Source: Marsupella aquatica (taxonomy: Eukaryota > Plantae > Marchantiophyta). Taken from it: a DNA stretch of 64,000 bases. The position numbers and the translations under genes were made by a program. The stretch spans positions 6,994,184 to 7,058,183 of the forward strand of contig OZ316895.1 in assembly GCA_973895155.1 (NCBI GenBank), given 5' to 3'. How positions within the stretch are numbered: position 1 is the first letter of the stretch; every line of letters begins with the position of its first letter. The notes under the pieces were generated by a model, which saw only the letters and a list, made by a program, of their open reading frames with translations, searched no databases and was not told where the DNA came from. Positions 2,099 to 60,966 of the stretch are shown here, piece after piece.

Positions 2099-2213
2099 TG
2101 TGATGCCTAGCCAGGAATCACTGGGCTAGTTTTAGGGGAAAAGGGAAGTGTACCCTAGAAACACCTTAGCATAGTTACATAAATAAGGAAAATATAAACA
2201 ATTAAGGGTGACT

Positions 2214-3419
2214 ATGGAACCCGAGCCGAGGCCAGAAGTAAGGACGCCAGGGGAGAGAACACGATTAGGGTTAGGGCACGCTAAGTGCCGGCGGCTAGGG
2301 GTAACCAACGGGAGGGAGAACCAGAGGAGGAGAGGGGTAAGGACCGCTAGTGAGGAATAGTGGCTCATTTGCAAACACGAACTGGGCAGGCGACTACGGG
2401 CGGCCAACTACTGTCAACTGCTTAGGCAAGCCCTTAGGGTGGGAATAGATACCGACTATCAACTCGAGAAGGGAAAGGGCATTGAAGGGGGAGCTCGAGG
2501 TTATCCGCGGAGCCCTTGAGCAGAAGGAGGCCGAACTAGGGAAATCCTATCAAGGGATTATTGCGCTGCAGCAGGATGTGTCCCTGACGGCCAGCTTCAA
2601 AGCCGACCTGCGTGAGAAGGACAATATGCTCGATCAGACTTACACCAAGATGAACCAGATGGAGTCTATCATCATTGCAAAGCTCGACAAGGAGTTAAGA
2701 GCAACCCGGGAGGAGAGAGCTGCGTTTAAAAAGGAATTGGAGGAAGCCCAGAAGGAGCTGGAGGAGGCGTGCAAGGACCTAGACGAAGTGCAGGAAGAGT
2801 TGGAGGAAAGCACGCGAAAGCTAGAGAACTTACAACGACGAGCCGACAACCAAACAGAGCGGAGCGGCTGAAGAAACAAGCCGCAGTATTTAAGTGCTTG
2901 GCTTCATCAGGGCCAACTCAAATTGAGGCCACTAAGTTACCAGGAGTGGTACTGGCCGAAGGACAAGCCGCGCCATTTGCACCAGTGCCGGAAGTAAGTG
3001 GGAAGGGGAAGGGGCCAGCTGCCAAACCAGAAAAGAAGAAGAAGCGGAAACCTTCAGGGTCAAGGAGTAATACGGCTCCATAGGTAGTGGTGACCATGGA
3101 GGTAAACCCAGCACCGACCTACGGCAGGATTACGGCAGAGGATCCAACTACCCTAGAAGAAGGGGATGACAAAGCCGAGGCCAGGATACTCGGTAATGAA
3201 GCCGAGGTACCCAATCCGCCACTTGAGTGTGCAGGGGAGGCCGTAGCCGAGGCTGATGTTGAAGCCGATGCCGTGGCCGATGCCGGGGGTGGACCCAGTC
3301 AGGCCGATGGAGAGTTGACTCAGTCAAGGGCAGGTAATCTGTCAGAGAACGAACCTACGGTAGTGGCTGAGGAGGAAGCATTGGGGGCGTCCACTGAGGA
3401 ACAGACACCGCTGCCATGA
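2214..3419 (+). pseudogene. Remnant of the unit-A ORF (N-terminus joined to the coiled-coil C-terminus)
   Basis: Matches the A2 ORF start (MEPEPRPEVRT), jumps ~2.4 kb of A2 sequence near 2468, then ELGKSYQGI...RRADNQTER. A short GGAGC duplication near 2860 shifts the frame, and there is a stop at 3081-3083. Confidence 0.85.
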
Positions 3420-3883
3420 CGGTGGTGGAGGGCCGCTCCTTTCAAGGAGGGCGGATGTGGAGGGAGGAGGCGTGAGTGGGCAGGGCGGGCTCAGATCTCT
3501 AAGTTTAGGATTAGGATCAGGACCAGGAGACACTTAGCTTAGTGGGATTGTGGTTCCACTGGTAAGAGCAACACTTGTACTCCTGCCTCGCTGTACATAG
3601 ATAGATCCAGTTAGGTAGATTCAGTTAGGTAGATTAGGCTTACGCTGCAAAGAATTAGGCGGATCCACTACCAGGATAAGTACCTGGGCAGCGGGGAGCT
3701 AAGGGCCTCTTCTTTAGCAAGTTTTTAGTTGCACCAGCCGGGCTGGGATCAAGTAGTAAGAGAAGCTCTCGGTTAGTCATACAGTGACCCTTGTGTATAT
3801 TCATGTTTCCTCATGCCTAAGAGCTGAATAGAGTTGGCCTCACGGCTTAGTTCGCAGAGCTTGTGTATGAGATGTACTGTTTG

Positions 3884-4545: not shown

Positions 4546-7500
4546 CTAGTTGTTACTTACCCCGTCACATAGCTCCTCTCTTAATTGCGAAGCGCCCCCG
4601 CGAGCACCATACTCCTCCTCCGTGTAATACTTCTTTAGACGTTCTTGATTGATCCGTGTGTTGAGTAGTTGCCCCTCCAATGTCCTGAGTTGAACTGATC
4701 CGTTGGAGTAGACGGCGTCTACTACGTAGGGCCCCATCCAACGTGTATGCAACTTCGCCGGGAAATGCATAAAACGACTATCGTACAGGAGTACCAAATC
4801 TCCCTCCTCAATGGACACACGACGGAGACGAGAATCGTAATGTGACTTCCGTTTGCTTTGCTCCTGCTCCGTACGGGTCAAAGCCTCTTCTCGTGTCTCA
4901 GTGAGTTGCTCCAACTGTTGGATCCGTGCAGCTACACTTCTTTCTTCCCCTTCCCTTTGCCGTGTGAGGATCCGAATGGTGGGCACTTCAAATTCCACCG
5001 GCACAAGAGAGTGTTGTCCAAACACAAGGAAATAGGGGCTGTGGCCCGTGGTAGTCTTGTGAGCCAGGTTGTAGGCGTAAGTAGCAGCCAACAACTTGAA
5101 ATCCCAATCGGTCTTGTGAGCTGATACCGTCTTGTTAAGAATCGTGCCCATGATCCCGTTTGCTCTCTCAGTGAGCCCGTTGGCTCGAGGATGGTACGGA
5201 GTGGTCTTCCTATGTGAGATCAGGTAGTTCTCCGTCAGACGTTCAATTGTATGATTGAGAAAGTGAGTACCCCTGTCACTCACCAGCTCCAATGGGGGAC
5301 CAAATCGTGTAAAAATCTGCTCGTACAAAAAACGTGCCGTGGTGTTGGCATCATCCTTGGCAGTGGCTCGGGCCTCCACCCACTTTGTGGCATAGTCCGT
5401 TGCAAGAATGATGTAGCGCTTCCTCCCTCTTCTAGTGATGGGAGTGAAGGGGCCAATGAAATCAACCCCCCACTTCTCAAAGGGTGCCAGAGGAAGTATG
5501 GGCACCAATGGGTGGCGTGAGGAGGGCCCTGGCTTGCCTTGCCGCTGGCACGGATCACATCGCTGGATGTACCGGTGTACATCCCGAAAGAGAGTTGGCC
5601 ACCAATATCCAGCATCTAGTATTTTCCTTGCGGTGGTCTCCCGTGCAAAGTGGCCACCAGCTTCCTCCTCATGTAGTGCTGCCATGACTGTACGTATCTC
5701 AGCTTCCTCCAAACAACAACGAAGGCGGCCATCCATGCCATACTTGTGAAGTACTCCCTTCACAAGCAAGTAGGGACCTGTCTTACGTAAAAACACTGCT
5801 GCTCTCTCCGGGCCCAAACGTGAGGGAACTCTCGCCGTACGGAGAAATTCCAAAATTTCTCCATACCAAGTAGTGGCCTCCGTAGTCACGCTGAACACTT
5901 CTTCATCCGGGAACCGATCATCAATCTCCTGTGAGTCAGATGCTCCCTCAATACGGGAGAAGAAGTCTGCATTGTTGTGATTCTTCCCCGGTCTCACTCT
6001 CACCTCATAGTTGAACTCTTGCAACAACAAAACCCAACGTGCAATTCTTCCCGACAAGTCTGGCTTGTTGACCATGTACTTCAAACTATTGTGATCCGTG
6101 TGGAACACAACCTTGTAACCCAACAAATAATGACAATACTTCTTACAAGCATAAATGATACCAAGTGCCTCCCTATCGGTGGGTGAGTAGTTCTTTTCTG
6201 CCGGGGCCAACTGCCTACTGGCAAAGTAGATGGGATGGTCCCTTCCATCATCATCCAACTGACTCAACACGGCACCGATGCAAAATCCTGATACGTCTAC
6301 GTAAACATGGAACTCCTTATTCCAATTAGGCGTAATGAGTACGGGGGCCTCTAGCAAACGTTTCTTCAATTCATCAAAAGCAGCCTGTCGGGGTGGAGTA
6401 GGTTCAAATTCACTTCCCTTCTTCAACATGGAGGTGAGTGGCATGGCTACCTTGGCAAAGTCTTTGATGAAGCGTCGATAGTATCCAACACACCCTAAGA
6501 ACCCTCTCACTTCCTTTACGTTCTTGGGAAATGAGACTGCTACCCACACGGCCACCTTCTCGCGGTCAACTTCAATCCCCCGTGCAGACACTTTGTGGCC
6601 CAATAGGATCCCCTCCTCAATTCCAAAGAAACATTTCTCAGGATGCAGCCTCAAGCAAGTCTCCCGGCACCGCTGAAAAGTCAACCGTAAGTGTTCCGGA
6701 TGCTTGACTCGTTTGCCATAGACAGCAAAGTCGTCAATAAAGATCTCCAAGAACCTGCGTAAAAAGTCATGAAATATATTCATCATGAGCCGCTGGAACA
6801 TGCCAGGGGCATTGCACAACCCAAAAGGCATTCTACGGAATGCAAAAATCCCCCACTCCGTAGTGAAAGCCGTCTTGAGTTGGTCCTCCTCCCGTATCCA
6901 AATTTGGTTGTAGCCAGAGTAGCCATCCAAGAAGCTGTAAATCTCCCAACCAGCTACCATATCCAACACGATATCGGTAAACGGCAGTGGGTAGTGATCC
7001 TTCTTGGTCGCCTCATTCAACTTTCGAAAATCTTGGCACACCCGTATTTTCACCTTCCCGTCTGGCCCCTTCTTCTTGGGCACGATCACGATGGGTGACA
7101 CCCACTCACTATGCATGACCGGATAAATGAAGCCTGCATCCAACAAACGGTCAATCTCCTCCTTCACCATGAGTGAGTACTTGGGGTTGAGGCGGTATTG
7201 GCGTTGCCTCACAGGTCGTGCTCCTGACATCAGGTCAATGCTGTGCTCACCAAACTCAGGTGGCACTCCTTTCAAATCTTGGTGGCCCCACGCAAATACG
7301 TCTTGGTACTCCTTCAACAATTCTTGAATCTTGCGTTGCTCCGTAGCATCCAACTTACTACCAATGTTGAGTGTCTTGCCCTCACCCACTTCCACCTTGG
7401 TGTACTGCTCCGGCCTGATCACGTCCAACTTGTTGCGTGTCTCCTCATCAAAGGTCTCTTCCAACCGTGCGAGCCTCATCCCTCCATACACAGGTGCATC

Positions 7501-11170: not shown

Positions 11171-11600
11171 AAAACAAGGACCACACTTATGTCACTTGCC
11201 TATCCAACGATTAATACGTGCAAACCGTACTTTTTCTTGCTTAAACCGTTGGTATCATATTACGGGGTCGTGGAGGGACGCTATTTGGAGGATTTCCACA
11301 CCTAAGGTTGAGTATGTTTGATTCCGCTCCCGGAAGTGTACTTTTTGATCAAGTCTACCGACTGGTCTCTCCGTTTTTGATCAAGTCCAAGGGACTGGTC
11401 CTACCATCTACAACTCATGCCCACCGGGTGAGTGCTGTCACCACCCCCCTCCTCTCTTGGGCAAGCATACCAACATTTACAATAAGATTTGAACACTAGT
11501 GACAAGGGCAAATGTTTCCACAATGACACCGACCACACGCACTAGGGGAGGAAAACAAACAACACAAGCAACCACAAGTGACACACAAAATATTGGAACC

Positions 11601-12218
11601 TCAAGCCAAATCCATATCTCTTGGTGTTTCTCGTAACACATGCAAGGGCAACCCGGCCTCCTGCCGTCTGCCCAACTCCTGCCTCCCGGGGACAAGTGCT
11701 ACGTTCTCCACCTCACTACTCTGGCTTGAACTTCTCCTAATCGGTGCGCTACTCACAAAAGCTACTCCAAAGCATCCAAGTACTATGCTGAGTTTTCCCC
11801 TGATGTGCCGAGGTGTGAATGAGAATTTCTGATTCTCCAGAAACAGCAGCCTAGCCAACTCTACATGGGGCACTACACGTTTGAGACATTCAAAGTAGAT
11901 TCCCTCCGTTCGTAACTCCATCCCGGCCTCAATGTCCCAGCTCTTCCCCGGGGGGATGGTAATCTCCACCTTCATGAATTCTGTAACCCCGGTGGCTTGG
12001 AAAATATTCCGACAATCCTCTATCACCTTGGCGGAGGTCTTGGGATAAATTCGACGAAAAATCCTCCTACCCACCGGCGTGGAACCTGCTGCCAATCCCG
12101 TGCTCATCGTAGCTTCTCTCTCTTCTCTCTCCCTTGAAATCAAAGTCTCCACGTAGTCACGGTAAGCAGCCTTGTATCTCCGAATGCGTGCCACACTGAA
12201 CTCCGGTTGATCTAGCAT
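11601..12218 (-). CDS. Hypothetical 205-aa ORF inside the E3 LTR
   Basis: ATG-initiated and protein-like in composition over the first ~130 aa; no family recognised. Confidence 0.35.
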   Translation of the reverse strand: MLDQPEFSVARIRRYKAAYRDYVETLISREREEREATMSTGLAAGSTPVGRRIFRRIYPKTSAKVIEDCRNIFQATGVTEFMKVEITIPPGKSWDIEAGMELRTEGIYFECLKRVVPHVELARLLFLENQKFSFTPRHIRGKLSIVLGCFGVAFVSSAPIRRSSSQSSEVENVALVPGRQELGRRQEAGLPLHVLRETPRDMDLA

Positions 12219-12549
12219 TCATGCATCCCGAAATCAAATCCTCAATCACCAAATCCCGTCACCCGTAGCAATGTCAATTCCCTGGCCCGAAACAGCCCCC
12301 GCATCCCGATCAATCGATTACTCTCAATTCCCCCAGAAGCCACTCCGTGCTGCTGCCGCTAATGCCCGGAAGAATCAGGCCACCAAGCCCCACCAATCTA
12401 CCATGAGAGAGAGCTTCAAAAATAATTAGAAGGTGAGAGCTTTCGGCAAGGTGTTGGGAGAGAACTTCGAGTTTTGCTTTCGGCAAGGAGAGGGTCGTGC
12501 AAAAGAGGGAGAAAAGAAGGGAAGAAAAAAAACCAAAAAAATCCCCCCT

Positions 12550-13290
12550 GACACCTCCTTTCGCCTTGCGCCCCGGGCCCTCCTTTAATGGCCCTCCCCG
12601 GTGCCCTCTTTCGCCTGGCTTGCGGGAGCCCTAAATGCCCTGGGCACGCAGCCCTATGGGCTCGCCCCGGCCACCTGCCATCTCACTTTTCTCACGGGAG
12701 TCCCGGCTGCGCTCTCGCCCCGATGCCCCCCTGCGCCACTCGCGGGAGCACTTAGTGCTCGGCTACTCGCGGTTCAAACGGGGGATTTAATTCCCCCCCG
12801 ACAGCCCTCTTTCGCCTCACGGCCACCCCCCGTAGCGCCCTCTTTCGCCTGGCTCGCGGGAGCCCTAAATGCCCTGGGCACGTAGCCCTATGGGCTCACG
12901 GGAGGGTTTTAATACCCCCCCTTTACTCCTCGGCTGCGGCCCGGCTGCCCTTGCCCTGCTCGCGGGAGCCCTTACCTGGGGATTCCACGTGGCGGCCCTA
13001 GGGCTGCCCCTTATGGGCCCTTAAGTGCTCGCCCACTGCTAGGCCACTTAAGGGGTATTTAACCCCCCTCCGCGACCTTCCTGCACCGGCCTCCCTACTT
13101 GGTACTCGCGGTGCCCCTTAAGGGGGAATTTTAATTTCTCCCCCACCCTCGGCGCCTCGCTTCCTTCAGCTCGCGGGGCTCCCCTCAAACGGGGGATTTA
13201 ATTCCCCCCTTTCTTCTCCTGAACGCGGCCCTATGCAGGGCTCGCGACAGCCTCCTCCCTGTCCAGCCCGGCTCCGGCTGCCCATAAAAA
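12550..13290. repeat. GC-rich internally repetitive block in the E3 LTR
   Basis: ctctttcgcctggc(t/c)gcgggagccctaaatgccctgggcacg at ~12606 and ~12840; caaacgggggatttaattccccc at ~12775 and ~13186; many ctcgcgg motifs. Confidence 0.7.
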
Positions 13291-13544
13291 AAACTTCCCC
13301 CTAATCACACTGCCGGGGTCACCTCTACTCAAAAACTTCCTTGCTCCCGGTCCTGTTTTATTTCTTCTTCCCACCAACCTTGCTATTGAGTTCTCTAAAA
13401 ATGGCCCTAAAATAATGGGGAGTCCCCCAAAGGCAGGGCCCTCCTCCCAACATAATTGCAGAACAATTAGGGGATAAAAATAAATACAGTTCTTCGGTCA
13501 CAGGTGATGAAAAAATGGTTATTTACAATGGTTATTTACACTGC

Positions 13545-16500
13545 TGTGATGCCTAGACAGGAATCACTCGGCCAGTTAAGTGGGTAAAGCAGGAAGGCAC
13601 CCTAGGAACACCTTAGTATAGGGACAAAACAAGGAAAATATAAACCATTAGGGGCAACCATGGAACCCGGGCCGAGGCCGGAGGTAAGGACGCTGAGGGT
13701 GAAAACTCGATTAGGGTTAGGGCTCGTTAAGCGTCGGCGGCTAGGAAGGATCAACGGGAAGAAGGACCGGCAGAGGAGAGGGGTAAGGAGCGCTTGCAGG
13801 AGATGGTGGCTCATTTGCGAGCACGAACTAGGCAGACGACTACGGGAGGCCAACTACTGTCAGCTGCTTAGGCAAGCACTCGGGGAGAGAGTAGATACCG
13901 ACAATCGACCTAAGGAGGGTATGAGCAACGTCAATCAAGCGGCACATTTCTGGGGATGCCTGTTCGAACGGGCAACTGAGTACATCAAGACTTACGAGGA
14001 CGAGGAATCAGAAAGGGCAGCTCGAGAACGGCAGGAGCTCGCTCGATTGTGGGAGCTGCAGAAGACAGCTTTCTTAGGAGGCGAACTCATCAAGGACGAG
14101 TTCCTGTGGACGCCTACTTCCAATCAACTCGACGATCTTCTGTTTTGCAAAGATAGCGTCGTCGGCATCCGAGAGGCCATCAAGAACTGCAATGACATAC
14201 ACTGGGAATTAAAGGGTAGCACGGAAAGGTGGACCCAGGCAACGGTGCTAGGAGAAACCTCCACAGCAGCAGAGATGAAGAGGAAGGGAGCCGTCAACGA
14301 TGAAGCCACCCCGGAAAAAAGAACGAGGTCGGCGGCACCAAAGAAGCCAGCCGAGCAGCAGAGCAGGAGGCAGGGAGAAGCCGAAGAGGAGGAGGTCGAT
14401 CCCATCAAGGTCATTCCAACCAGGGATGACACCTGGAAGGGCTGGGCGGCAACCCTACCGGTGGAGGTGCAACTACATTTTGCACGGGAGGAGGATGCAT
14501 GCTTCACGGCCATGCAGACCAAGAAGTACCAAGGCTTCATGGCCGGATCCGGCTTAGAGGCCTTTGTAAGATTACCATGGCTGAAGCCGGAGGTACCGGA
14601 GTCAGACCTATTAGAATTCGTGGGGTCATGGGAACCCGAGACCAATTGCACGAGGATATATGGGAAGGATTTCTATCTTACTCCCAAGGTAATTGCCGAA
14701 GTGTTTGGCTTGCCGATAGGCAATAAGACCAAAGTTGATACCAGGAAGACCTTGCCTGACAAGGAGTTCCGGTCGTTCCCCGGGCCATCAACAAAGAATG
14801 GCTTCTTCCGGAACACCTGCACCAACCCGCACATAGGAGAGATGATCGACTTCTTGCGGGTGACCATGCATTGTAACTTGCCGAGGGCAGAGATCGGCAA
14901 GGCACAGGTCTATCTGGCAGAAAGGCCAGACCCAAGCCGGGACTACAACGGGTACCTCCTCAACCAATTGAAGAAGATCTTAAAGGAGGAGCAACAGGTA
15001 ATCGGCATGGGGAGCGTGTCGCGGCTTGGCTATCACATGCCGCTGTTGTGCCGGTATGCCAGAGGTCAGACTTTTGCCCCGGTACTTCCCCTGCAGGTAA
15101 GGGCACCCGAGGAAGCTCCAACACCGAGGCCGTTGGCTGAGAAGCCTCAACCACCTGTTAGCCCTACGATCGAGCAGGTGTTTAGGCCCAGGAAGGAGGA
15201 CTTGCCGATGCAGCAACCAGGCATGCAGAGTCTGTTGAAACTACTGGAGAACGAAAAGAAATCGGCATCGGCAACAACAACGGCAACGGCAACAATGCAG
15301 GACACTACTACAGAGGTAGGCCTACACCGGCTCACAAGAGAAAACCCCTTTGCTGGAGACAAGGAGAGAATCAGGCCGGAATCCAAGCCCGGTGTTCGAA
15401 TGTATGTGGGAATCTCAAGCTCCGAATCTGAGGCAGAATTGCCTGAAGCTCCTACCGACGAAGAGGAGAGGGAGAAGCCGGACGGCCAAGAAGTAGAGGA
15501 GGCAGTGGAGGACTGCAGCCATGATAATTCCGGCTATGGGTCGGACCATCACGTCCCAGGAGTAAGGACCTGTGGCCGGTTTGTCCCCACACTTCCAAGG
15601 GTAGTGCGAGGGGACCCCAACCAGCAGAGTAGCCCTGAGTCTCCCCCACCAGATGTTGCTCCCCCGAGCTTCGACGGCATAAAACAGACGGTGCAGGAAT
15701 TTCAGGAGCGAATCAAGCAGGAAGAGGAGGCAGCCCTGGCTAGGGAAAAGGATTTACCAGGAGGAGATTGGCCGGAGGACATCAGGCGGCTAGCCAAAAA
15801 AGGAAGCAAACCTCTAGCCACGATTGAAGAGATCCGCAAGACGGCTTGGGAGCAGAGGCCGCGATGGGCGATGCCGATTACTTCTACTTACTCCACCTAC
15901 GCTAAGAATAGAGCCATGGAGTATGGTGAGATGTGTGGGGAACTTGCGCTCGGCATCTTTGGAGAGGAGTTGGAGGTAGGACCCTTTTTCCATAGGGAGC
16001 AGTTGGAGAAGCACCAATTAGAAGAAGCGGTGGCTTTAGAGAGAAGCAAGAAGGACGAGGTCATTCGGCGGCTTAGGAGGATGGAAGCCGAGATTGAAGA
16101 TCTAAGGGCGGCCAAGAAAGCCCAAGATGAACTGCGGATTAAACGACATGAGCTGAACATCATGCAGGGGCAGTTGGACACCGCGCAGGCTGATAATCAG
16201 AATATCAAGGATAAACTGACTCAGACGTAGGGAGAGTTGGCCGACACGATCAAAGAGAGGGAGAAGTGGAAGCAAGAGCTGAAGAATACAGAGGAGGCCC
16301 ACATAACAGCCAACAGCCGGGCCATGGCGGAGACCCAAAGAAAGGAATGGGCGTTGAAGGGGGAGCTCGAGAAAATCCGCGGAGCCCTTGAGCAGAAGGA
16401 GGCCGAGTTAGGGAAATCCTATCAAGGGATTATGGCGCTACAGCAGGAGCTTGCGTCCCTGACGGCCAGCTTCAAGGCCGACCTAAGGGAGAAGGACGAG

Positions 16501-18207
16501 ATGCTCGAACAGACTTACGCCAAGATGAACCAGATGGAGTCTGTCATCATTGCAGAGCTCGACAAGGAGCTAAGAGCAACCCAGGAGGAGAGGACTACCT
16601 TGAAACAAGAACGGGAGGAAGCCCAGAAGGAACTAGAGGAGGCACGCAAGGACCTGGATGAGACCCAGGAGGAGTTGGAGGAAATCACGAGGAAGATGGA
16701 GAACCTCCAGCGGCGGGCCGACAACCAAACGGAGCGGCTGAAGAAACAAGCCGCAGTATTTAAGTGCTTGTCTTCATCAGGCCCAACTCCAATTGGGGCA
16801 ACCAAGTTACCAGGAGTGGTACTGGCCGAAGAAAAAGCCGCGCCACCTGCACCAGTGCCGGAAGTAAGTGGGAAGGGGAAGGGACCAGCTGCCGAACCAG
16901 AAAAGAAGAAGAAACGGAAACCTTCAGGGTCAAAGAGTAATCCGACTCCACAAGCCGTGATGACCAAGGAGGTAGAACTAGCACCATCCTCCGGCATGAA
17001 TACGGCAATAGATCCCGCTATCATCACAGGTGGGGGTGGTGCGGCCCAAGCCGAACTACTCAGTAATGAGGCCGGTATCCCAGATCCGCCTCTTGAGCAG
17101 GCCGGGAAGACCCAAGCCGTGGCTGAGGCCGTAACCGGTTCCCGAGCCGATGCCGACGCCGATGGTGGACCCAATCAGGGCGATGGAGAGTTGACTCAGT
17201 CAAGGGCAGGTAATCTGTCAGAGAATGAACCTACGGCAGTGGCTGAGGAGGAAGCGTTGGGGGCGTCCATTGAGGATCCACCACCGGTGTCGTGACGGTG
17301 CAAGGGCGCCGTTCCTTTTAGGGAGGGCGGACGTGGAGGGAGGAGGCGTGAGTGGGCAGGGCGGGCGCTGATCTCCAAGTTTAGGATTAGGATCAGGACC
17401 AGGAGCGGCCCTGACACTTAGCTTAGTGGGATTGCGGTTCCACTGGTAGGAGCAACACTTGTGCTCCTGCCTTGCTGTACATAGGTAGATTCGGGCAAGT
17501 AGATTACTGTTAAGTAGATTAGGCTTACGATGCAAAGAATGGCGGATCCACTACCAGGATAAGTACCTGGGCAGCGGGGAGCTCAGGGCCTCTTCTTTAG
17601 CAAGTTTTTAGTTTGCACCAGCCGGGCTGGGATCAAGTAGTACGAGAAGCTCTCGGTTAGTCATACAGTGACCCTTGTGTATATTCATGTTTCCTCATGC
17701 CTAAGAGCTGAATAGAGTTGGCCTCACGGCTTAGTTCGCGAAAGTTGTGTATGAGATGTACTGTTTGTATGGCAAGTGCATGGTATGACTTAGTCAGAAT
17801 GAGTCATTTTGCTATTTGTGTGTCGCATTAACTTGTGTGAAGAGTGCCCACATCAACCAAAAGGAAGGAAAGTAAGCAGGGGAGTGAGAGTTGGATGTGT
17901 CGAGCTGAGAGAGGTCTTAGCGGCTTAACCAAGCCTATTGGGGATCATTCCGGCGGCGGAATCCAAACATACCTAACAAGACGGAGGGGAAGACAGGGGA
18001 AGGCCTAGATTAGGCCGGCTACGTATCTCATGACCCGATGAAGGATCTGTCCAGTATATGTGTGTAAAATGTTAATAGTAGTAGTAGAAGGTTAGCAGCG
18101 TCCCATGCCGCTAAGCCGCGGAAACGGCCTCGCCAAGCGCGAAACCTGCGGGAATCGGCTTGAGCTGGGGGGTTTCTTGGGTTTAGGGAGCCATGGCACG
18201 CACCACA
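13545..18207 (+). mobile_element. A2: complete 4663-bp TG...CA solo-LTR-like coding unit
   Basis: TGTGATGCC...GCACCACA with a perfect 5-bp TSD ACTGC (13540-13544, 18208-18212); the flanks rejoin into the E3 LTR. Confidence 0.93.
13660..17295 (+). pseudogene. Unit-A ORF, ~1211 codons with one premature stop: putative plant-TE accessory domain plus long coiled coil
   Basis: ORFs 13660-16230 and 16237-17295 are in frame across a TAG that is CAA (Gln) in A3. GLEAFVRLPW...EFVGSW...YGKDFYLTPKVIAEVFGLP recalls PMD/ATHILA-ORF1-like folds. E/K/L/A-rich coiled coil, KKKKRK NLS-like run. Confidence 0.8.
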
Positions 18208-21200
18208 ACTGCGCGACACTCCGCAACCAAGTTATTCATGATTTTATGTGACGGGGACCCCGTCACAGCAAGGGGCATAACTCATTAAATGTCCTTATTT
18301 GTGACCAAAAAGGTTTTGGGTTTAATGAAGTGGGGTTCATGGAGGTTGGACCATGGAGGGATGGTCAAGATATTCTTGGCCATTACTAAATCCATCTATA
18401 AAAGGTCAAGATGCACAAAGGTAGATTTGTACCGGTCCTTTTTCATACATTAGAGCTAGGTCACATTCTTGCACCGGGAATATTGCATTTTAGGACCGGA
18501 TATAATGTTGGGCAACCTTAATCCTGATTACGGCGTGCAATAAAATGTTACTACCGACCATGTATGTGCAAATATGACCATTCATTGCCTAAGTTGGCCA
18601 TGCAGTAACACTTTGTAGCTTTGTCCCACTTTGGGTGACACTCAACGGCTCACTCAAACGGTAAGGCTGAGTGGCTTCCCCTAATTTGGTTTCAGGCACT
18701 AAACTTCACTTTGGGAGTCTCTTTGGAGTTTTCGCCATTGTCATTGAACTTAGAACGTGAGGGGTGGAGTGTTCGGGGTTTTACGTAGGGTTTTCCTTTC
18801 AGTGTTGCCCACTTTTTGCGACCATTGCGGAGTGAACTTCCCACGCGTTATGTGCTTGTTTATGCTCTCGAGGAGCAGTGTTCAGGCAGTTGCGGTGATC
18901 TAACCTTGCGCTTGCAGTCTACTCATAGACCTGCATTCCTGCTCGATCTCCTTTAGGGACATTTAGTTTTTGGCTGGTAGGGCGAAGAAGGTTGTGGCTA
19001 CTGCAACGTTCGTGAGGAGCTTGTCGGAGTTTGAGGAGTCGGAGGTTGGGGTTTCTTCAAGGTTTTGGGTGACAATCTCGGTCACAGTTGTGGTATAGAC
19101 CCTTTTGCTCGTTATGGGCTCATTGGGAGGTCCTTCAGTTGTCAAGCTGCCGTTGAGCTGGTGAAGTTGCATGCGGGTTGCATCTGTTCTGTGGACACAG
19201 TCAGTGTGGGAATCCATATTTTCATAGTGCTTGTTCTTGCAAACTGGGAGCCGAGAGTTTGGAGTCGGGAGCTAAGAAGGGTATTGTTAGGCTTCAATTA
19301 CTCTGTGGTTTTCTCCAGCTCCATGGTACAGTTTCAATGTTAATGCTTTGTCCTTGTGCTGGTCTAGGTAGCGCGAGCTTCTACCTATTGCGCCCTCTTG
19401 CTGTAAGCGTATTGAGCTGCCAACTGAGTGATTCATACCTGTAGCTGCTTACGCGTGATCAAGAGATTGAACAAATGCCTAGTGCTGTCCAGCAGGAGAA
19501 AACTCTTTTTGGTCATGATCGGGCGTTGGAATATAACTAAGTGTGGCAGAGCAACACGGGGAGCTGTAGAGTTGCAGACAAGACGCAACTACAGAGGAGG
19601 CATTGGGAAGGACACAACGGTGCGGTGAAGGTACAAGGACCGTGGACCCTAACTTGTTTGCTGCCTTGGGAGGATCCGGAGAGCCCGAGGCGACATGCTT
19701 CATTGAGCCTGAGCTAGCTGAATCCAATCCAGGAGTTGTTGCGCTAAGGTGAGACTTTGAGTTTAGGGTTGCTTCAGTGTCCGAGTAGGTTTTCTCTTTG
19801 CGTCGGCAGCTAGAAGGTAAGCTTGGGGGCTTTACAAAGGGTTAGTGTTGCGGACTTTCCCTCCTGGACGTTGTGTGTCTTCATTTGCAACTTGTTTGTG
19901 GACCTGTGATCCTAAGATTGTCAAAATTGTTGTGGCCGCACTGACAACTTGATGACGCGTTTTGTGGATGCACCGTTAGTAATCGCGAGTACAGCTCTCC
20001 AACAATTGCACTTACCATTTTTGACCACCTTGCATGATGTCCATCCGTGGGCTGGACCCCAAGAAGTAGATTTCGGTAGATTTTGGTAGATTTTGTCTCT
20101 GCCCCCGGTCCTCATTTTGTGCAATGTCCGCCTGGCACTTGGTTCTTGATCCCTACATTATCGTCTGCCGCTCGGCTGCTTGCGGAAGGGATCAAACAGA
20201 TTGGAGGTGCTTGGTCTTTTCATTTTGAGTGTCAGAGTTTAGGAGGACAGCTTGCACCATCGCCGACAAGAATGACCTGCTTGCAGAACAAGAGGGACGA
20301 GCGTGAGCTGCTTGTAGAATAGGAGATTGACCGCGAGCACGAGCTGCTTGAAAAGAGGAGACTGAGGGCAACCTGCTTCTTTGTTGCTACTCTGGTTGCG
20401 CTGCTACATTGGTTGTTGATCTTCACCCACCCACTTGCCTACTCAATTGACAGAGTACAGCTTTGTCTCTGCGTCTGTTACTGCTGTCTTTGTCCCTCCC
20501 CTTGAAATTGTGGGCCTTAAAAGGTCAGTAAGTTGGCTTATGTAGTTTTTATGTCCCTCCGCTATGTCAATGCGTGTTTCATTGCATCAGGGCATCAGTC
20601 GTTGTTTGCCTATAACCGGACTGTTCATTCTCTGTCCACTCATTTGATGTAATTCTTCCCATTGCCGCCCAATGCTATGGCGCCCATGCTACAATTTGTG
20701 GTTTTTGTCTAAGCACAAATCCTCTCTATGCCTGGTCTCTGTGTCCCGTCATTTGGATTGATTGTGTAGACGTTTCCTCTTCTCCCAGTCCTTGTCATCC
20801 ACCAGCCAAAGCACATTGGATTGTTTTCAAAGGAGGGCTGTGTAGTTTGGAGGGTTTGATCTATGCAGCGGATTTGAGCAGATTGGCGGTTGTTAGTTTC
20901 TTCTTGTAAAACCTGTCTGTCTTTTCTGCTTTTGGCCATGCTCCTTCACTTCTTGCTGCAAGCTCAATGTGCTTCAGCTATGGCAATATTCACTTACCCT
21001 ATCCCAATGGCACTACCGTGAGCTATAGGACAGCCAACAGAAGCAGATTGTATCGATTGCATGTAAGTCAGGGTATTTTATGTATTGCGGAACAACTGTC
21101 CAAGTTTGCTGCAATGGCCGGTCTTGCGCAGCTGAATGAGCCAATTTCATTTTCCCTGTGCACTTCTATTTCTCAGAGAATTCCCTGGTCATGCTCATTT

Positions 21201-22212: not shown

Positions 22213-22881
22213 AGGACCACTTGTGTCACCGCATGCACAAACCAGAGACCATTGACCTATAACTTAACACTTTGACTTGAACAGAGAGGATATTTACTTA
22301 AGATTTTGAATTATGACCAATTTTGGGTCCAGGGTTTAGGGTCAACAGTACATAACTTATCCTATTATGGCTGCACTAAGTACAATATCCTAATTTAAGA
22401 GGCTAGCAAGCTCACTTAAAAGTCTCCTTTCAAAGACTGGAATTAATGGGCCATGTGATAACCTGGAAAAAGTGATTTCTGCCTAACTTATTTGTCTCAT
22501 TCACTATCATAGCCTATTTAGGATGTATAAATTACAACCCTGATCACAGTGCTTGATACCAATCCTGTTCAAAAAATGCCTGTTTTACATGTCACGACTG
22601 TTATATGTGATTCAAATGCATTAAATCTTGTTGCAGATCTCCTTTGGTGAATCATAGCCACAAAATTGAGGTGTAGGTGGAGCTATTGTACGAGGGGACC
22701 AGTTTTTAGTGTGGGCTCAACAAACCAAAAAGTATGTCTACTCTGCACATGTGTGTGAACATTTCATTGCAGTAGCAATTGCCACTCTAGTCTATATGCT
22801 ACACTGTACTTTTTGTACACTGCACTAAATTGTATTGTCTGTGCACTCTGCTAAATTATACTATCTGTCTCATGCGTAGGC

Positions 22882-23562
22882 ATGGCACGCCCTAAAATCC
22901 GAGCCAAGAAGCGGGGGATAGAGGTGAGCAACACAGGTGTAGTTGGGCCAGATGGTAGTAACTTCTCCGCAAGTCAGATTTTCCAGAAGGCAGCTCATTG
23001 TTGTGCCATTTGTGACGATGGTGGTGGCGTAGCCATATGTGAGGGCCCTTGCATGAGGCATTTCCACCTCAACCCGGAGTCTGACCTTGCTGCAGAAAAC
23101 AACTGTCTAGGGGTGGGCCTCCCGTCAGCACACCAGGGAGGCTGGATGTGCACTGATTGTTTGGAGAAGCAGGCTAAGTGTGCACAGTGTGGGAAGTTGG
23201 GGTCTTATGAGGGCTCTGTTGATGCTCCACCACTTGTTAGGAAATGCCCTGACAGATATTGTGTGAGGTTCTTTTGTTTTTCATGTTTGCCCGATCTTGC
23301 CACAGCTTGCCCACTTCATAAGTGCAAGGCATGTGGTCAGCATGATGAAGATTTATGGGTGGACATAGTCCACTGTGTTAGGTGTCCCACCATGTGGCAC
23401 TTTCATTGTTTGAAGGAGCGTCAAGCAGAAGGCTATGCTTGTGACAGACACATCTATGATCACTCTGCACATGGTGTTGATCAATGGATCTTTTATTGTC
23501 ATCGCCATGCCATAGATCCTACTTTGCACACTCCCATGAGAGATCACATTTCTTGGCTTTGA
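22882..23562 (+). CDS. CACTA cargo 2: stand-alone EDM2/NSD-type multi-PHD finger protein
   Basis: CAICDDGG..ICEGPCMRHFH...CTDC...KCAQCGKLGS...CPLHKCKAC...CVRCPTMWHFHCL...FYCHRHAIDPTLHTPMRDHI parallels the EDM2 PHD region as recalled (CAICDNGG..CEGSCLRSFH...CPLHKC..C...CRRCP..YH..CL...YC..HEID..L.TP.RDH). Basic N-terminus. Confidence 0.82.
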   Translation: MARPKIRAKKRGIEVSNTGVVGPDGSNFSASQIFQKAAHCCAICDDGGGVAICEGPCMRHFHLNPESDLAAENNCLGVGLPSAHQGGWMCTDCLEKQAKCAQCGKLGSYEGSVDAPPLVRKCPDRYCVRFFCFSCLPDLATACPLHKCKACGQHDEDLWVDIVHCVRCPTMWHFHCLKERQAEGYACDRHIYDHSAHGVDQWIFYCHRHAIDPTLHTPMRDHISWL

Positions 23563-24160
23563 ACCTGAATAATGTACATGCATAGTGCACCTGATGTGGA
23601 TACCTTGGAGATTGCAGACATTCCAATTTTGAGAAGAAGGACCTCTGTAGGAGAGGATGCTTAGGCAACAAGTACCCTAAGTTCATTACTTGTTCCTGGG
23701 TACATGCCTTCAAAAACTCCCCTTAAGCCTTCTAGGAACTTTTTTAACTCTGCAATCATTTTGATCACGACTTACATGACACTGCTTAAATTAAATCAGG
23801 ACTTCTCATTATGAGCATATAAGTTACAAGGCTATTTAATTTGCGAGAATTCCCTTAAAGTGTACCAACATTTTGTATTCTCATTGAATGTCTGCCCATT
23901 TACAACATCTGTATGTGGCATCACAAAACAATTGCACTTGTCACCTTCAATATTGTGAAGGCACATATTCAAACTATGAGGTGCATGCTTGCAGGTGTCT
24001 AGTACGTTTGTCCCAATATTTCTCCCGTTTGGAATCGGAGCAGAGACTCACCAGACGATTGGACTGGACCAAGTTATAAACGCAGCATTTTAAGGGCCCT
24101 CCGATTATCAGGTGAACGCATTATCTTCTGGTCTGCAGTGATTAGGTGGCCCGTGTGTAC

Positions 24161-25009
24161 ATGGCCTCTAGGAAACATACAAAGGTTGACCACCCGCCTC
24201 TGTTGGCTGGAATCAAAGCCATTTTGATTCCTGGCCACTATGGGTTCACCCAAGTGAGTTGGCCAATCGTACAAAAACGATTCTCAGAGTTCCATGGGAT
24301 TGAAGTCAAGGACATCACTCCACAAACTACACATGTTGTTGCGGGGACATGGCTGGATGTGATGAACAAGTGGTCATGGTCCTTCATTGATTCTGCCATT
24401 ACCAACCAAGGTCTAAAAGTAGTTGAAGTCTCTTGGCTGACCGATTCTGTTAAACATAGGTGTGTACAGAGTACTGAGCAATATGAGTTGTGGGAGAGTG
24501 AGGAGGCCACTGCAGAGGCTTTGGCTGAAAAGGAAGCCTATGAAGCAGCGGCAGAGAAACCCAACTTTGCTTCTGTCCAATATGGACCTGTTGTCAACAT
24601 AGGACACCATCCTATGCGTGCAGATGCTATATTGAATGAGCATGGCAAGGAGAGAAATACCATTATGAAGGGGTTCAGTGTGGTATTTGCAGAAGAAGGA
24701 ATTGGGGAGACTAAGTGCAGACTGTACAAGTCCATAGTTGTTGAGCTAGGTGGGACAGTGGAGGAGAGTCTAACAGAAACCTCCACTCATGTTGTAGGTC
24801 TGTCATACATGAAAATATGCAGAAAATTCTTTAAGACAATAGTGCGTGATTTTGTCATGAACAACAATCTTTGGGTGCTTTCCCCTGATTGGCTTCTGGA
24901 ATCAGCAGCTAGAGGGAAGCGACAGCATGCTTGGGACTTTGATATTTTTGAGGCCTGGCCCTCCAAGATTCAGCGGAGATGTATGCTTAGCAAAGGTGGG
25001 AGAGAGTGA
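24161..25009 (+). CDS. CACTA cargo 3: tandem BRCT domain protein
   Basis: Two repeats with BRCT hallmarks: ...TTHVVA...VVEVSWLTDSV and ...LGGTVEESLTETSTHVV...VLSPDWLLESA. ATG at 24161. Confidence 0.8.
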   Translation: MASRKHTKVDHPPLLAGIKAILIPGHYGFTQVSWPIVQKRFSEFHGIEVKDITPQTTHVVAGTWLDVMNKWSWSFIDSAITNQGLKVVEVSWLTDSVKHRCVQSTEQYELWESEEATAEALAEKEAYEAAAEKPNFASVQYGPVVNIGHHPMRADAILNEHGKERNTIMKGFSVVFAEEGIGETKCRLYKSIVVELGGTVEESLTETSTHVVGLSYMKICRKFFKTIVRDFVMNNNLWVLSPDWLLESAARGKRQHAWDFDIFEAWPSKIQRRCMLSKGGRE

Positions 25010-33922: not shown

Positions 33923-34370
33923 TTGTATGGCAAGTGCATGATATGACTCAGTCAGAAGGAGTCATTTTGCTATTTGTGTGTCGCATTAACTTGTGTGAAG
34001 AGTGCCCACATCAACTAATAGATGAAGGAAAGTAAGCAAGGGAGTGAGAGTTGGATGTGTCGAGCTGAGAGAGGTCTTAGCAGCTTAACCAAGCCTATTG
34101 GGGATCATTCCGGCGGCGGAATCCAAATATACCTAACAAGAAGGAGGGGAAGACAAGGGAAGGCCTAGATTAGGCCGGCTACGTATCTCATGACCCGATG
34201 AAGGATCTGTCCAGTATATGTGTGTAAAATGTTAATAGTAGTAGTAGAAGGAGGTTAGCAGCGTCCCATGCCACTAAGCTGCGACAACGGCCTCGCCAAG
34301 CGCGAAACCTGCGGGAATCGGCTTGTGAAGGGGGGTTTCTGGGGTTTAGGGAGCCATGGGACGCACCACA

Positions 34371-37273: not shown

Positions 37274-40200
37274 TGTGGTGCGTCCCATGGCTCCCCAAAC
37301 CCAAGAAACCCCCCTGCGCAGGCCGATTCCCGCCGGTTTCATCCTCGGCGAGGCCGTTTCGCGGCTTAGCGGCATGGGACGCTGCTAACTTCCTTCTACT
37401 ACTACTATTAACATTTTACACACATATACCGATGAAGGATCTGTCCCTTGTATTCCCCTCCTTTTCTTTAGGTATATTTGGATTCCGCCGTCGGAATGAT
37501 CCCCAATTGGCTTGGTTAAGCCGCTAAGACCTCTCTCAGCTCAACACATCCAACTCTCACTCCCTTGCTTACTTCCCTTCATCTATTAGTTGATGTGGGC
37601 ACTCTTCACACAAGTTAATGCGACACACAAATAGCAAAATGACTCCTTCTGACTGAGTTATACCATGCACTTGCCATACAAACAACACATCTCATACACA
37701 AGTTTTGCGAACTAAGCCGTGAGGCCAACTCTATTCAGCTCTTAGGCATGAGGAAACATGAATATACACAAGGGTCACTGTATAACTAACCAAGAGCTTC
37801 TCTTACTACTTGATCGCAGCCCTGCTGGTGCAACTAAAAACTTGCTAAGAAAGAGGCCCTGGACTCCTCGCTGCCCAGGTACTTATCCTGGAAGTGGATC
37901 CGCCAATTCTTAGTAGCGTAAGCTTAATCTATCCTACCTGTAATCTACCGAACTGTAATCTACCTAAGTATAGCGAGGCAGGAGCATAAGTGGATCCGCA
38001 ATCCCACTAATCTAAGTGTCAGGGCCGTCTCCTAGTCCTGATCCTCAGCCTAAACTTGGAGATCCGAGCCCGCCCTGCCCACTCACGCCTCCTACCTCCA
38101 CGTCCGCCCTTCCTAAAAGGAACGGCGCCCTTGCACCGTCACGACACCGGTGGTGGATCCTCAATGGACGCCCCCAACGCTTCCCTCGCAGCCACTGCCG
38201 TTGGTCCTTCCTCTGACAGATTACCTACCCCAGACCGAGTCAACTCTTCATCGGCCTGACTGGGTCCACCCTCGGCTTCGGCATCAGTATCGGCCACGGC
38301 CTCCCCGGCTATGGTTTCCTCGGCTGGCTCTAGTGGTGGGTTTGCTACCACGGCTTCATCAATAGTTGTCCCGGCCTTGGCCTTGCCATCCCCACCTTCC
38401 TTGACAGGTGGATCCATTGTCGTGACCATGCCGGAGGTTGGTGCCGGGTTTACCTCCTTGGTCACAACGACTGGAGGAGCCGTATAACTCCTAGACCCAG
38501 AAGGTTTCTGCTTCTTCTTCTTCCCTGTTTCGGCAGTTGGTCCCTTCCCTTTGCCACTTACCTCCGGCACCAGGGCGTGTGTCTCGGCTTGTCCTTCTGC
38601 CAGTACCACTCCTGGTAACGGGGTTCCCACAATTGGAGTTGGAACAGATGAAGCTAAGCACTTAAATACTGTGGCCTGTTTCTTCAGCCGCTCCGTTTGG
38701 TTGTCAGCCCGACGCTGTAAGTTCTCCATCTTCCGCGTGCTTTCCTCCAACTCCTCCTGCAATTCATCCAGGTCCTTCCTTGCCTCCTTCAGCTCCTTCT
38801 GGGCTCCTTCCAACTCTTTCTAGGCTTCCTCCAACTCTTTCTTTAAGGTAGCCCTCTCCTCCTGGGTTGCTCTCAGCTCCTTGTTGAGCTCCGTAACAAC
38901 CTCAGACTCCATTTTATTCATCTTGGCATAAGTCTGGTCGAGCTGGTCATCTTTCTTACGGAGGTCGGCCTTGAAGCTGGCCGTCATGGATGCGAGCTCC
39001 TGCCGCAGCATGATAATTGCCTGATAGGATTTCCCTAACTCGGCCTCCTTCTGCTCTAGGGCTTCGCGGATATCCTCGAGTTCCCCCTTCAACGCCCTCT
39101 CCCTTCTCTGAGTCTCTGCCATGGCCCGGTTGTTGGCTACTATGTGGGCCTCCTCTGCGTCTCTCAGCTCTCGCTTCCACTTCTCCCTATCTTTGATCGC
39201 CTCGGCCAACTCTCCTTGGGTCTGAGTCAGTTTATCCTTGATAATCTGATTATCAGATTGCGCAGTATCCAACTGCCCCTGCATGATGTTTAGCTCATGC
39301 CGTTTAATCTGTAGCTCATCTTGGGCTTTCTTGGCAGCCTTTAGGTCTTCCACCTCGGCTTCCATCTCCCTAAGCCGCTGGATGACCTCGTCCTTCTTGC
39401 TTCTCTCCAAAGCCACCGCTTCTTCTAATTGGTGCTTCTCCAATATCTCCCTCTGGAAAAAGGGTCCCTGCTCCAACTCCTCCCCAAAGATGCTGAGCGC
39501 AAGTTCCCCACACATCTCCCCATACTCCATGGCTCTATCTTTAGCATAGATGGAGTAAGTAGAAGTCATTGGCATCAACCACCTCGGCCTCTGTTCCCAA
39601 GCCGCCTTGCGGATTTCTTCTATGGTGGCAAGAGGGTTGCTTCTTTTTTCGGCAAGCCGCCTGATGTCCTCCGGCCAATCTCCTCTTGGTAAATCTTTCT
39701 CCCTAGCCAGGGCTGCCTTCTCTTCCTCTCTGCGTCGCTCCTGAAACTCTTGTGCCATCTGCTTTATGCCGTCAAAGCTCGGGGGAGCGACATCTGGTGG
39801 GGGGGACTCGGGGTTGCTCTGTTGGGTGGGATCCCCTCGAACTACTCTAAGCGTGGGGATAAAGCGGCCACAGGTTCTTACTCCTGGTACATGATGATCC
39901 GACCCATAGCCGGAGTTATCATTGCTGTAGTCCTCCACCGCCTCCTCCACTGCTTGGACTCTCGGCTTCCCCCTCTGTTCTCCTGGTCCCGCCATAAAAA
40001 CGGCCTCACAGATCACGGGCCCTGGTTCCTCCTCTGGCTTCCAGGCTATCTTCTCCCTCTGCTTTCCATGAGCAGGAGCCTTAGGCTGCTCTGCCTCCGA
40101 TTCGTGGCTGGAGGCTCCCACATACATTCGAACTCCCGGCTCGTGTTCTGGCCTCCTTCTCACCTTGGCGCATGCCAGATTGCTGCATCGGCAAGTCTTC

Positions 40201-41862
40201 TTTTCTTGGCCGAAACATCTGCTCGATCGTAGGACTGGCGGGCTGGTTGGGCTCCTCTGTTGCCGGCCTCTGCTCCGGGACTTCCTCTGGTGCCCTCGCC
40301 TGCAGGGGAAGTACTGGGGCAAAGATCTGACTTCTGGCATACCGGCACAACAGCGGCATGTGATAGCCGAGCCGGGACACGCTTCCCATGATGATCACCA
40401 GCTGTTCCTCCTTCAAGATCTTCTTTAGTTGGGTGAGGAGGTACCCGTTGTAGTCTCGGCTTGGGTCTGGCCTCTCTGCCAGGTAGACCTGTGCCTTGCC
40501 GATCTCTGCCCTCGGCAAGTTGCAATGCATGGTCACCCACAAGAAATCGATCATCTCTCCGATGTGCGGGTTGGTGCAGGTGTTGCGGAAGAAGCCATTC
40601 TTCGTTGATGGCCCTAGAAACAATCGGAACTCCTTGTCTAGCAAGGTCTTCCTGGTATCTACTTTGGTCTTATTGCCCATCGGCAAGCCAAACACTTTGG
40701 CAATCACCCGGGGAGTGAGATAGAAATCCTTCCCATACACCCTTGTGGAATTGGTCTCGGGCTCCCATGATCCCACGAATTCTAATAAGTCTGAATCCGG
40801 CACCTCCGGCTTCACTCATGGTAATTTTACGAAGGCTTCCAAGCCGGATCCGGCCATGAAGCCCTGGTACTTCTTGGTCTGCATGGCCATAAAGCATGCA
40901 TCCTCCTCCCGTGAAAAATGCAGTTGCACTTCTTCTGGTAGGGTCGCCGCCCAGCCTTTCCAGGTGTCATCATTTGTTGGAATGGCATTGATGGGATCGA
41001 CCTCCTCCTCTTTGGCTTCCGCCTGCCTCCTGCTTCCCTGCTCTGCTGGCTTCCTTGGTGCCGCCGACCTCGTTCTTTTTGCCGGGGTGGCCTCTTCATT
41101 GTTGTTTCCTTTCCTCCCGCTTTCCTCTTCATCTCGGCTGCCGTGGATGTTTCTCCTAGCATGGTTGCCTTTGTCCACCCCTTTGTGCTACCCTTCAACT
41201 CCCAGTGTATGTCGGTGCAGCGGTTGATGGCTTCCCGAATGCCGACAATCTTGTTTTCGCAAAAGAGAAGGTCGTCAAGCTGATTGGCAGTAGGAGTCCA
41301 TAAGAACTTGGCCTTGATGAATTCTCCTCCTAAGAAGGCAGATTTCTGCAGCTCCCACAGTTGAGCGAGCTCCTGCTGTTCTCGAGCTGCTCTCTCCGAT
41401 TCTTCATCCTCGTAAGTCCCAATGTACTCAGTTGCCCGTTCGAACAGGCATCCCCAAAAATATGTCGCTTGATTGACGTTGCTCATACCCTCCTTGAGTC
41501 GTTCGTTGGTATCTGCTCCCGCCTAGAGTGCTTGTCTAAGCAGCTGATAGTAGTTGGCCTCCCGTAGTCGTCTGCCCAGTTCGTGCTTGCAAATGAGCCA
41601 CCATTCCTCGCGAGCTGTCCTTACCCCTCTCCTCCTTTGGTCTTCCCTACCATTGGTTACCCCTAGCCGCCGACACTTAGTGCGCCCTAACCCTAATCGT
41701 ATTCTCTCCCCCGGCGTCCTTACTTCCAGCCTCGGCCCGGGTTCCATAGTCACCCTTAATTGTTTATATTTTCCTCATTCTTGTAACTATACTAAGGTGT
41801 TTCTAGGGTACGCTTCCGTTTTCCCACTTAACCGGCCTAGTGATTCCTGGTTAGGCATCACA
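37274..41862 (-). mobile_element. A3: third copy of the solo-LTR-like coding unit, inverted
   Basis: Same termini; TSD GTTAT/GTTAC (37269-37273, 41863-41867); the flanks rejoin to the RRRLPKVG gag-pol junction seen in E3. Confidence 0.92.
38139..41747 (-). pseudogene. A3 copy of the unit-A ORF, disrupted
   Basis: ORF pieces 41523-41753, 40827-41486, 40816-41178, 40081-40815, 38820-40340 and 38139-38813 align colinearly with the A2 protein. Confidence 0.85.
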
Positions 41863-44800: not shown

Positions 44801-45738
44801 GGGGAGTGGACTTCATTGGTCCGTTCACTCCCATCACACGGAGGGGAAGGAAGCGGTATATCATCCTAGCTACGGACTACGCTACCAAGTGGGTGGAGGC
44901 CCGAGCGACTGCAAAAGATGATGCCAACACCACGACACATTTTTTGTATGAGCAGATTTTTACACGGTTTGGCCCACCCTTGGTGCTGGTAAGTGGCAGG
45001 GGTACTCATTTTCTGAATCATACAATCAAGCGTCTAACGGAGAACTATTTGGTCTCCCATAGGAAGACCACCTCGTACCACCCACGAGCCAACGGGCTCA
45101 CTGAGAGAGCAAACGGGATCATGGGCAAGATTCTCAACAAGACGGTGTCAGCTCACAAGACAGATTGGGATTTGAAGTTCCTGGCTGCCACTTACGCCTA
45201 CAACCTGGCTCACAAGACCACCACTAGTCACAGCCCCTACTTCCTTGTGTTTGGTCAACATTCTCTTGTGCCGGTGGAATTTGAGGTGCCCACCATTCGA
45301 ATCTTGACACGGGAAAGGGAAGGGGAAGAAGTAGTGTAGCTGCACGGATCCAACAGTTGGAGCACCTTACGGAGGTAAGAGAGGAGGCTTTGACTCGCAC
45401 GGAGCAGCAACAAGGCAAACAAAAGTTGCACTACAATTCCCGGCCCGCTGTGTGTCCATTGAAGAGGGGGATTTGGTGCTCCTCTACGATAGTCGTTTCA
45501 TGCATTTCCCCGGGAAGTTACATACACGTTGGATGGGGCCCTACGTTGTCGATACGGTCTACTCCAATGGGTCGGTTCAACTCAGGACGCTGGAAGGGCA
45601 ACTACTCAACACACGGATCAATCAAGAATTTACCTAAAGAAGTACTACACAGAGGAGGAGTATGGTGCTCGCGGGGGCGCTTCACAATTAAAAGAGGAGC
45701 TATGTGACGGGGTTCCCGTCACTGAAAATCCTCAATAA
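41863..45738 (+). pseudogene. pol: E1 pol, disrupted
   Basis: Same domains as E3 pol. Lesions: ~19-bp duplication at ~43474-43511, 4-bp duplication at ~44192, TAG at 44629-44631, further frameshifts in the integrase. Confidence 0.92.
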
Positions 45739-60918: not shown

Positions 60919-60938
60919 CACACAAATTCCATACGAGC

Positions 60939-60966
60939 AGGGTTTAGGGTTTAGGGTTTAGGGTTT
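60939..60966 (+). repeat. Interstitial plant telomeric repeat (AGGGTTT)x4
   Basis: agggtttagggtttagggtttagggttt. Confidence 0.9.

Follow-up and report, generated by a model that had tools for sequence, protein, structure and literature searches.

A large gene under purifying selection within a probable solo long terminal repeat of the liverwort Marsupella aquatica

Solo long terminal repeats (LTRs) of retrotransposons are treated as non-coding debris, and a gene of 1,124 codons lying within an LTR would outlast the recombination that removes gag-pol. Whether such a gene exists is the question raised by a unit of 4.66 kb, here called A2, in a 64,000-nucleotide stretch of the genome of the liverwort Marsupella aquatica (GenBank assembly GCA_973895155.1, contig OZ316895.1, positions 6,994,184 to 7,058,183; hereafter the window). 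The unit starts with TG, ends with CA, is bordered by 5-bp target-site duplications (TSDs) and consists largely of one open reading frame (ORF). In our judgment A2 is probably the solo LTR of a Ty3/gypsy element, with a gene whose product is weakly predicted to be a VANC/PMD-like, DNA-binding, coiled-coil anti-silencing factor; the architecture, a coding LTR, is likely to be right, and support for the predicted function is weak.

The ends of A2 read TGTGATGC at 13545 and GCACCACA at 18207, and match in inverted orientation at seven of the first eight bases, the match collapsing beyond; these terminal sequences, their imperfect inversion and the ACTGC duplication, all described in an earlier note on this DNA, were borne out on rechecking. 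Self-comparison of the window yielded two sister copies, A1 and A3, the latter 84-85% identical to A2. TG...CA termini with a duplication of the 5-bp type are present in all three copies (A3 matches at four of five positions; the chance of a five-of-five duplication is P about 0.001 per copy), which upholds the proposal of an LTR-integrase-type insertion. Empty sites are also on record: one contig of a public sequencing run (X2) contains the joint 13539->18208, and sites in gypsy elements of the B family, homologous to the insertion points of A1 and A3, carry the 5-mer once each. The earlier observation that A2 lacks internal direct repeats and gag/pol held as well, since its first 700 and last 900 bases have no 9-12-mers in common, and therefore no internal LTR pair, and since Pfam gave no gag/pol or transposase match, with neither rve nor DDE in either part of the ORF. 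TGT...ACA ends would also suit a non-autonomous cut-and-paste DNA transposon of the Ginger/TDD type carrying cargo, 5-bp TSDs being reported from TDD-4/5 (PMC2836005; here and below, published systems are cited from the accessible portions of the papers). This is very improbable: the inverted match of seven in eight bases contrasts with terminal inverted repeats of 40-270 bp, no integrase domain is found in the unit by Pfam, and the word 'plants' is absent from the main text of that paper.

The coding capacity of the unit was assessed by pairwise codon analysis. Between A2 and A3 the ratio of nonsynonymous to synonymous substitution (dN/dS) is 0.25 over 1,070 codons (95% bootstrap interval 0.21-0.31) as against 1.06 and 1.29 in the other two frames; the gene is under purifying selection, in agreement with the protein function that had been suggested for the A copies. 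By region the ratio is 0.17 in the N-terminus, 0.14 in the core, 0.18 in the linker, 0.23 in the coiled coil and 0.68 in the C-terminal tail, and the comparison of A1 with A2 gives 0.21 for the coiled coil and 0.83 for the tail. Up to the stop, the longest frame opened by an ATG spans 856 aa, a length reached by none of 200 shuffles (best, 287 aa). Where a single ORF of about 1,200 aa over about 78% of the unit had been described, one long gene stands and its start and coverage do not: because positions 13660-13920 are neutral (dN/dS 0.92) and are interrupted by stops in both sister copies, the gene under selection has 1,124 codons and covers 72% of the unit. The stop at 16228-16230 is indeed a Gln codon in A3, as had been noted, and is private to A2, with public contigs of all four runs concerned reading another letter at essentially all depth. 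The dN/dS signal reflects selection during replication of the lineage, not necessarily in the present solo copies. None of the three window copies is intact and the protein belongs to no named family, as would be expected of a captured host gene fragment, or of a long frame arisen by chance in a GC-rich LTR, without function; that explanation is largely refuted by the codon analysis and is the least probable that we considered, given a low dN/dS in the gene frame only, a private stop and homologues of the same layout in other organisms.

Those homologues share an arrangement of domain, linker and coiled coil; there were 23 matches, and among the 10 clusters looked up the 3 with names are all from the liverwort Calypogeia fissa, in which the protein is several-copy. 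No relative emerged from word-index protein searches (near, domain and longer lengths) or from scans of viral and metagenome contigs, the PDB sequence search gave no match, and the viral fold library gave none at E<=0.001, its best row being an 805-aa protein at E 0.042; a single-sequence fold was uninformative (pLDDT 31). Kinship with PMD and ATHILA families had been suggested previously. Pfam does not bear it out, with no family above cut-off for the domain and, in 25 alignment members, no match at E<=10 to VANC (DUF1985), PMD, Transposase_32 or Athila ORF-1; it survives as a lead only, through Atlas scores of 0.83-0.86 on the homologues and a weak whole-domain fold match of the core to VANC21 at 8-12% sequence identity. 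The structural and language-model leads all point to one group of chromatin-associated proteins of transposable elements (TEs), namely VANC/DUF1985, PMD, Transposase_32 and ATHILA. Fold kinship of the globular domain with VANC/PMD-type proteins is reasonably likely.

The protein is likely nuclear and would act on the DNA of its own family. It has no transmembrane segment (highest 19-residue Kyte-Doolittle hydropathy 0.83) and is therefore not env-like. Anti-silencing is the single most likely role, at somewhat less than an even chance. A coding solo LTR whose protein serves another purpose, such as nuclear import, particle assembly or integration targeting, is a smaller though substantial possibility: such roles are given for plant extra ORFs in reviews (PMC7264820), and all three A insertions lie in B elements. 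The convergence of leads on a single protein group and the lack of a transmembrane segment speak against it, and a sample of three insertions within a TE island is too small to show targeting.

How a gene could persist in a solo LTR may be pictured in three steps. An integrase would insert a full LTR-internal-LTR element, and LTR-LTR recombination would very probably leave one LTR between the duplications; the gene would survive in the LTR left behind. On balance the LTR would also be an independent unit of transcription, made up of a TATA box at +95, the ORF and, towards the 3' end, poly(A)/U5 signals, and intact solo copies could therefore supply the protein in trans. As the TATA box lies upstream, near the 5' end, the gene is likely in R/U5 rather than U3, and the divergence of the 3' non-coding part (about 0.1, compared with a dS of 0.44 at synonymous sites) is as low as expected from cis signals. 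Finally, the globular domain would bind motifs in family DNA and the coiled coil would oligomerise, as described or predicted for VANC21, a step that carries the reasonable likelihood given to fold kinship and the lesser chance given to anti-silencing. Taken whole, the scenario in which a bryophyte Ty3/gypsy lineage transferred an entire anti-silencing gene of the VANC/PMD fold to its LTR, with solos de-silencing the family in trans, is less likely than not; if true, each insertion would bring the gene in twice, and the formation of solo LTRs, by which the host chiefly deletes LTR elements, would leave self-contained de-silencing units.

Public sequencing data place A2 in a larger family. Among 17 listed runs, 15 contain the unit wholly or partly (10 studies) and 5 contain at least half of its words, none being recorded as RNA. 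Depth spans the whole unit in each of four runs examined; measured as summed contig depth, which is not a copy number, it is 157,000-938,000 inside the unit against 3,200-3,800 in flanking bins (run X1), and at 13545 it jumps from 1,135 to 36,703 (X3) and from 1,241 to 27,815 (X4). Because depth rises so sharply at the edges, the unit represents a discrete, abundant family. Elsewhere the 5' end is covered by one contig in X6 and none in X7. Most contig joints are concentrated at GATC sites, and we interpret them as products of Hi-C ligation rather than as deletions. In the contigs the visible 5' flanks of A copies are diverse; purine-rich flanks in X5 and X6 were not accepted as a polypurine tract (PPT), because the two disagree.

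Coding within an LTR is plausible in the window itself, because the gypsy element B1 has a 2.41-kb LTR-like segment (11190-13539 + 18213-18268, minus strand, followed by a primer-binding site and gag-pol) that holds a 205-codon ATG ORF (12218-11601, minus strand; 4/300 shuffles) with no Pfam match. The segment has the same start as the B LTRs and is homologous at both ends to the 0.91-kb LTR of a second element, B2, which keeps only the 3' end of the ORF; the B1 LTR represents a second LTR type, possibly a coding one. A 25-nt motif connects A with B1 at their 3' ends (2/300 shuffles, post hoc), and was not found in comparison with the B2 LTR.

Several results limit the case for a coding solo LTR with an anti-silencing protein. 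No paired A copy around an internal region was seen in the window or the contig flanks, and the visible 5' flanks share no PPT, although a contig that overlaps the unit by no more than about 30 bases may be missed. The B1 analogy is weakened in that homology between the B1 ORF and the A protein was tested and none detected, and in that the B1 3' LTR is cut after 10 bases. The VANC21 fold match is weak and no target-motif arrays were seen in the 3' non-coding parts (no enrichment in A2 and A1; one 7-mer four times in A3, 2/200 shuffles), which favours another role for the protein. The want of a common PPT, together with the fact that all three window copies are single and have TSDs, would also fit a stand-alone, non-autonomous unit, a lone TG...CA module integrated in trans by a gypsy integrase and never paired. 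We consider this improbable, because by the established mechanism both ends are restored in canonical reverse transcription only where a terminal repeat pair, a primer-binding site and a PPT are present; moreover, recombination between long LTRs, which are reported to give more solos, accounts for single copies between TSDs (PMC7251063). Of the two models that the earlier note had left side by side, the coding solo LTR is thus favoured and stand-alone integration is not, since the unit, lacking a repeat pair, a primer site and a transposase, has no known route by which to copy itself.

Features of unit A2 and its sister copies (positions in the window)
Feature	Position	Strand	Remarks
Unit A2	13545..18207	+	4,663 bp, TG...CA; likely solo LTR; within LTR-like segment of gypsy element B1; sharp depth edges
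Left TSD ACTGC	13540..13544	+	
Right TSD ACTGC	18208..18212	+	
TATA-type hexamer TATAAA	13639..13644	+	only one in unit; conserved across all three copies; likely promoter
In-frame upstream extension	13660..13920	+	non-coding; dN/dS 0.92; stops in both sister copies
Accessory gene	13921..17295	+	1,124 codons, 72% of unit; purifying selection; one private stop, 16228-16230, in A2
Conserved globular domain, aa 165-395	14413..15105	+	dN/dS about 0.14; weak whole-domain VANC21 fold match
Long, highly charged region predicted to form a coiled coil, aa about 695-945	16003..16755	+	dN/dS 0.23; coiled-coil families sub-threshold
Basic KKKKRK run	16903..16920	+	possible nuclear localisation signal
3' non-coding part	17296..18207	+	79-99% identity between copies per 100-column block; likely poly(A) and U5 signals
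25-nt motif	17948..17972	+	22/25, same sense, with 3' end of B1 LTR (11335-11312, minus strand)
Sister copy A1, 5' piece	2099..3883	+	internal deletion takes start codon and core domain; left TSD AGAAT; within B2 5' LTR
Sister copy A1, 3' piece	33923..34370	+	past 30-kb CACTA insertion; right TSD AGAAT
Sister copy A3	37274..41862	-	4,589 bp, frameshifted; within B2 gag-pol; TSD GTTAT/GTTAC, 4/5

The window is a nest of insertions, in which B1 and B2 are autonomous gypsy elements. B1 has Pfam matches to gag, zinc knuckle, protease, reverse transcriptase, RNase H and integrase, and in both elements a TGGCGCC-type primer site, which we take to be Athila-like, follows the LTR. A near-perfect 21-bp palindrome starts the B LTRs (18248-18268, 45703-45723, 4560-4569), the B1 3' LTR stops at its centre, and the B2 5' LTR is without its first 280 bp. 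All three A insertions (2099, 13545, 41862) are in B-family elements, two of them in LTRs, which may reflect targeting or merely a TE island. The CACTA element (3884-33922, 30 kb, TSD TTG) matches Transposase_21, DUF4218 and DUF4216, and has possible cargo ORFs resembling a PHD finger (22855-23562) and a twin BRCT (24146-25009). Further along are a pentatricopeptide-repeat gene that has a terminal DYW and contains young tandem repeats about 303 bp in length (54291-58103, plus strand) and a lectin-receptor-kinase-like gene (58819-60957, minus strand), both labelled from reading the translations.

The A unit is a real, if unusual, variant of known parts. If its protein is VANC-like, sequence-specific anti-silencing would reach beyond the DNA transposons of dicots and include a retrotransposon of non-seed plants, and the long-unexplained extra ORFs of the PMD/Athila type would be offered a testable function. 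There are consequences for annotation too: coding solos will be annotated as genes of the host, and with a cap near 5-6 kb LTR finders leave them barely within range.

Each component has a counterpart elsewhere. A literature search, with most subscription papers outside its reach, turned up no case in plants of an entire gene within an LTR, and a coding LTR is not mentioned in the accessible portions of PMC7466625 and PMC12885004. Plant extra ORFs are placed in the internal region (PMC7264820, PMC6317226, PMC11963269, PMC3485330). In OTA Ty3/gypsy elements the extra ORFs (Ogre PMD PF10536, Retand Transposase_28, Athila ORF-1 PF03078) likewise combine a globular domain with an SMC-like coiled coil (PMC6317226, PMC7264820, PMC11963269), and A resembles these elements in its 5-bp TSD and in LTR size, theirs being up to about 5 kb. 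Their ORFs are lost in solo LTRs because they are sited internally, whereas the A ORF lies between the TG and CA ends and matches no Pfam family of the group. Retrosat2, RIRE3 and RIRE8 also have giant LTRs (over 3 kb), many solos (429 to 162 complete elements) and an extra ORF, but their ORF0 lies upstream of gag-pol and does not fill the LTR (PMC3485330). With VANC21, the anti-silencing factor of VANDAL21 Mutator-like elements (PDB 9lnj/9lnk; PMC5735166, PMC13547354), A shares a weak fold match, a coiled coil, the status of a TE-encoded accessory gene and a conserved domain among variable low-complexity stretches; VANC21 belongs to a dicot DNA transposon, and the A protein is only 8-12% identical to it and has no DUF1985 match. 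A parallel in arrangement is sag of MMTV-type betaretroviruses, a protein gene in the LTR (U3) that is borne mostly by solos (490/527), with a dN/dS near 0.3 (omega 0.289) from replication-phase selection (PMC4667437). Unlike sag, A is a repeat of plant retrotransposon type, in which a 1,124-codon gene for an unrelated, likely nuclear protein extends over 72% of a 4.66-kb LTR.
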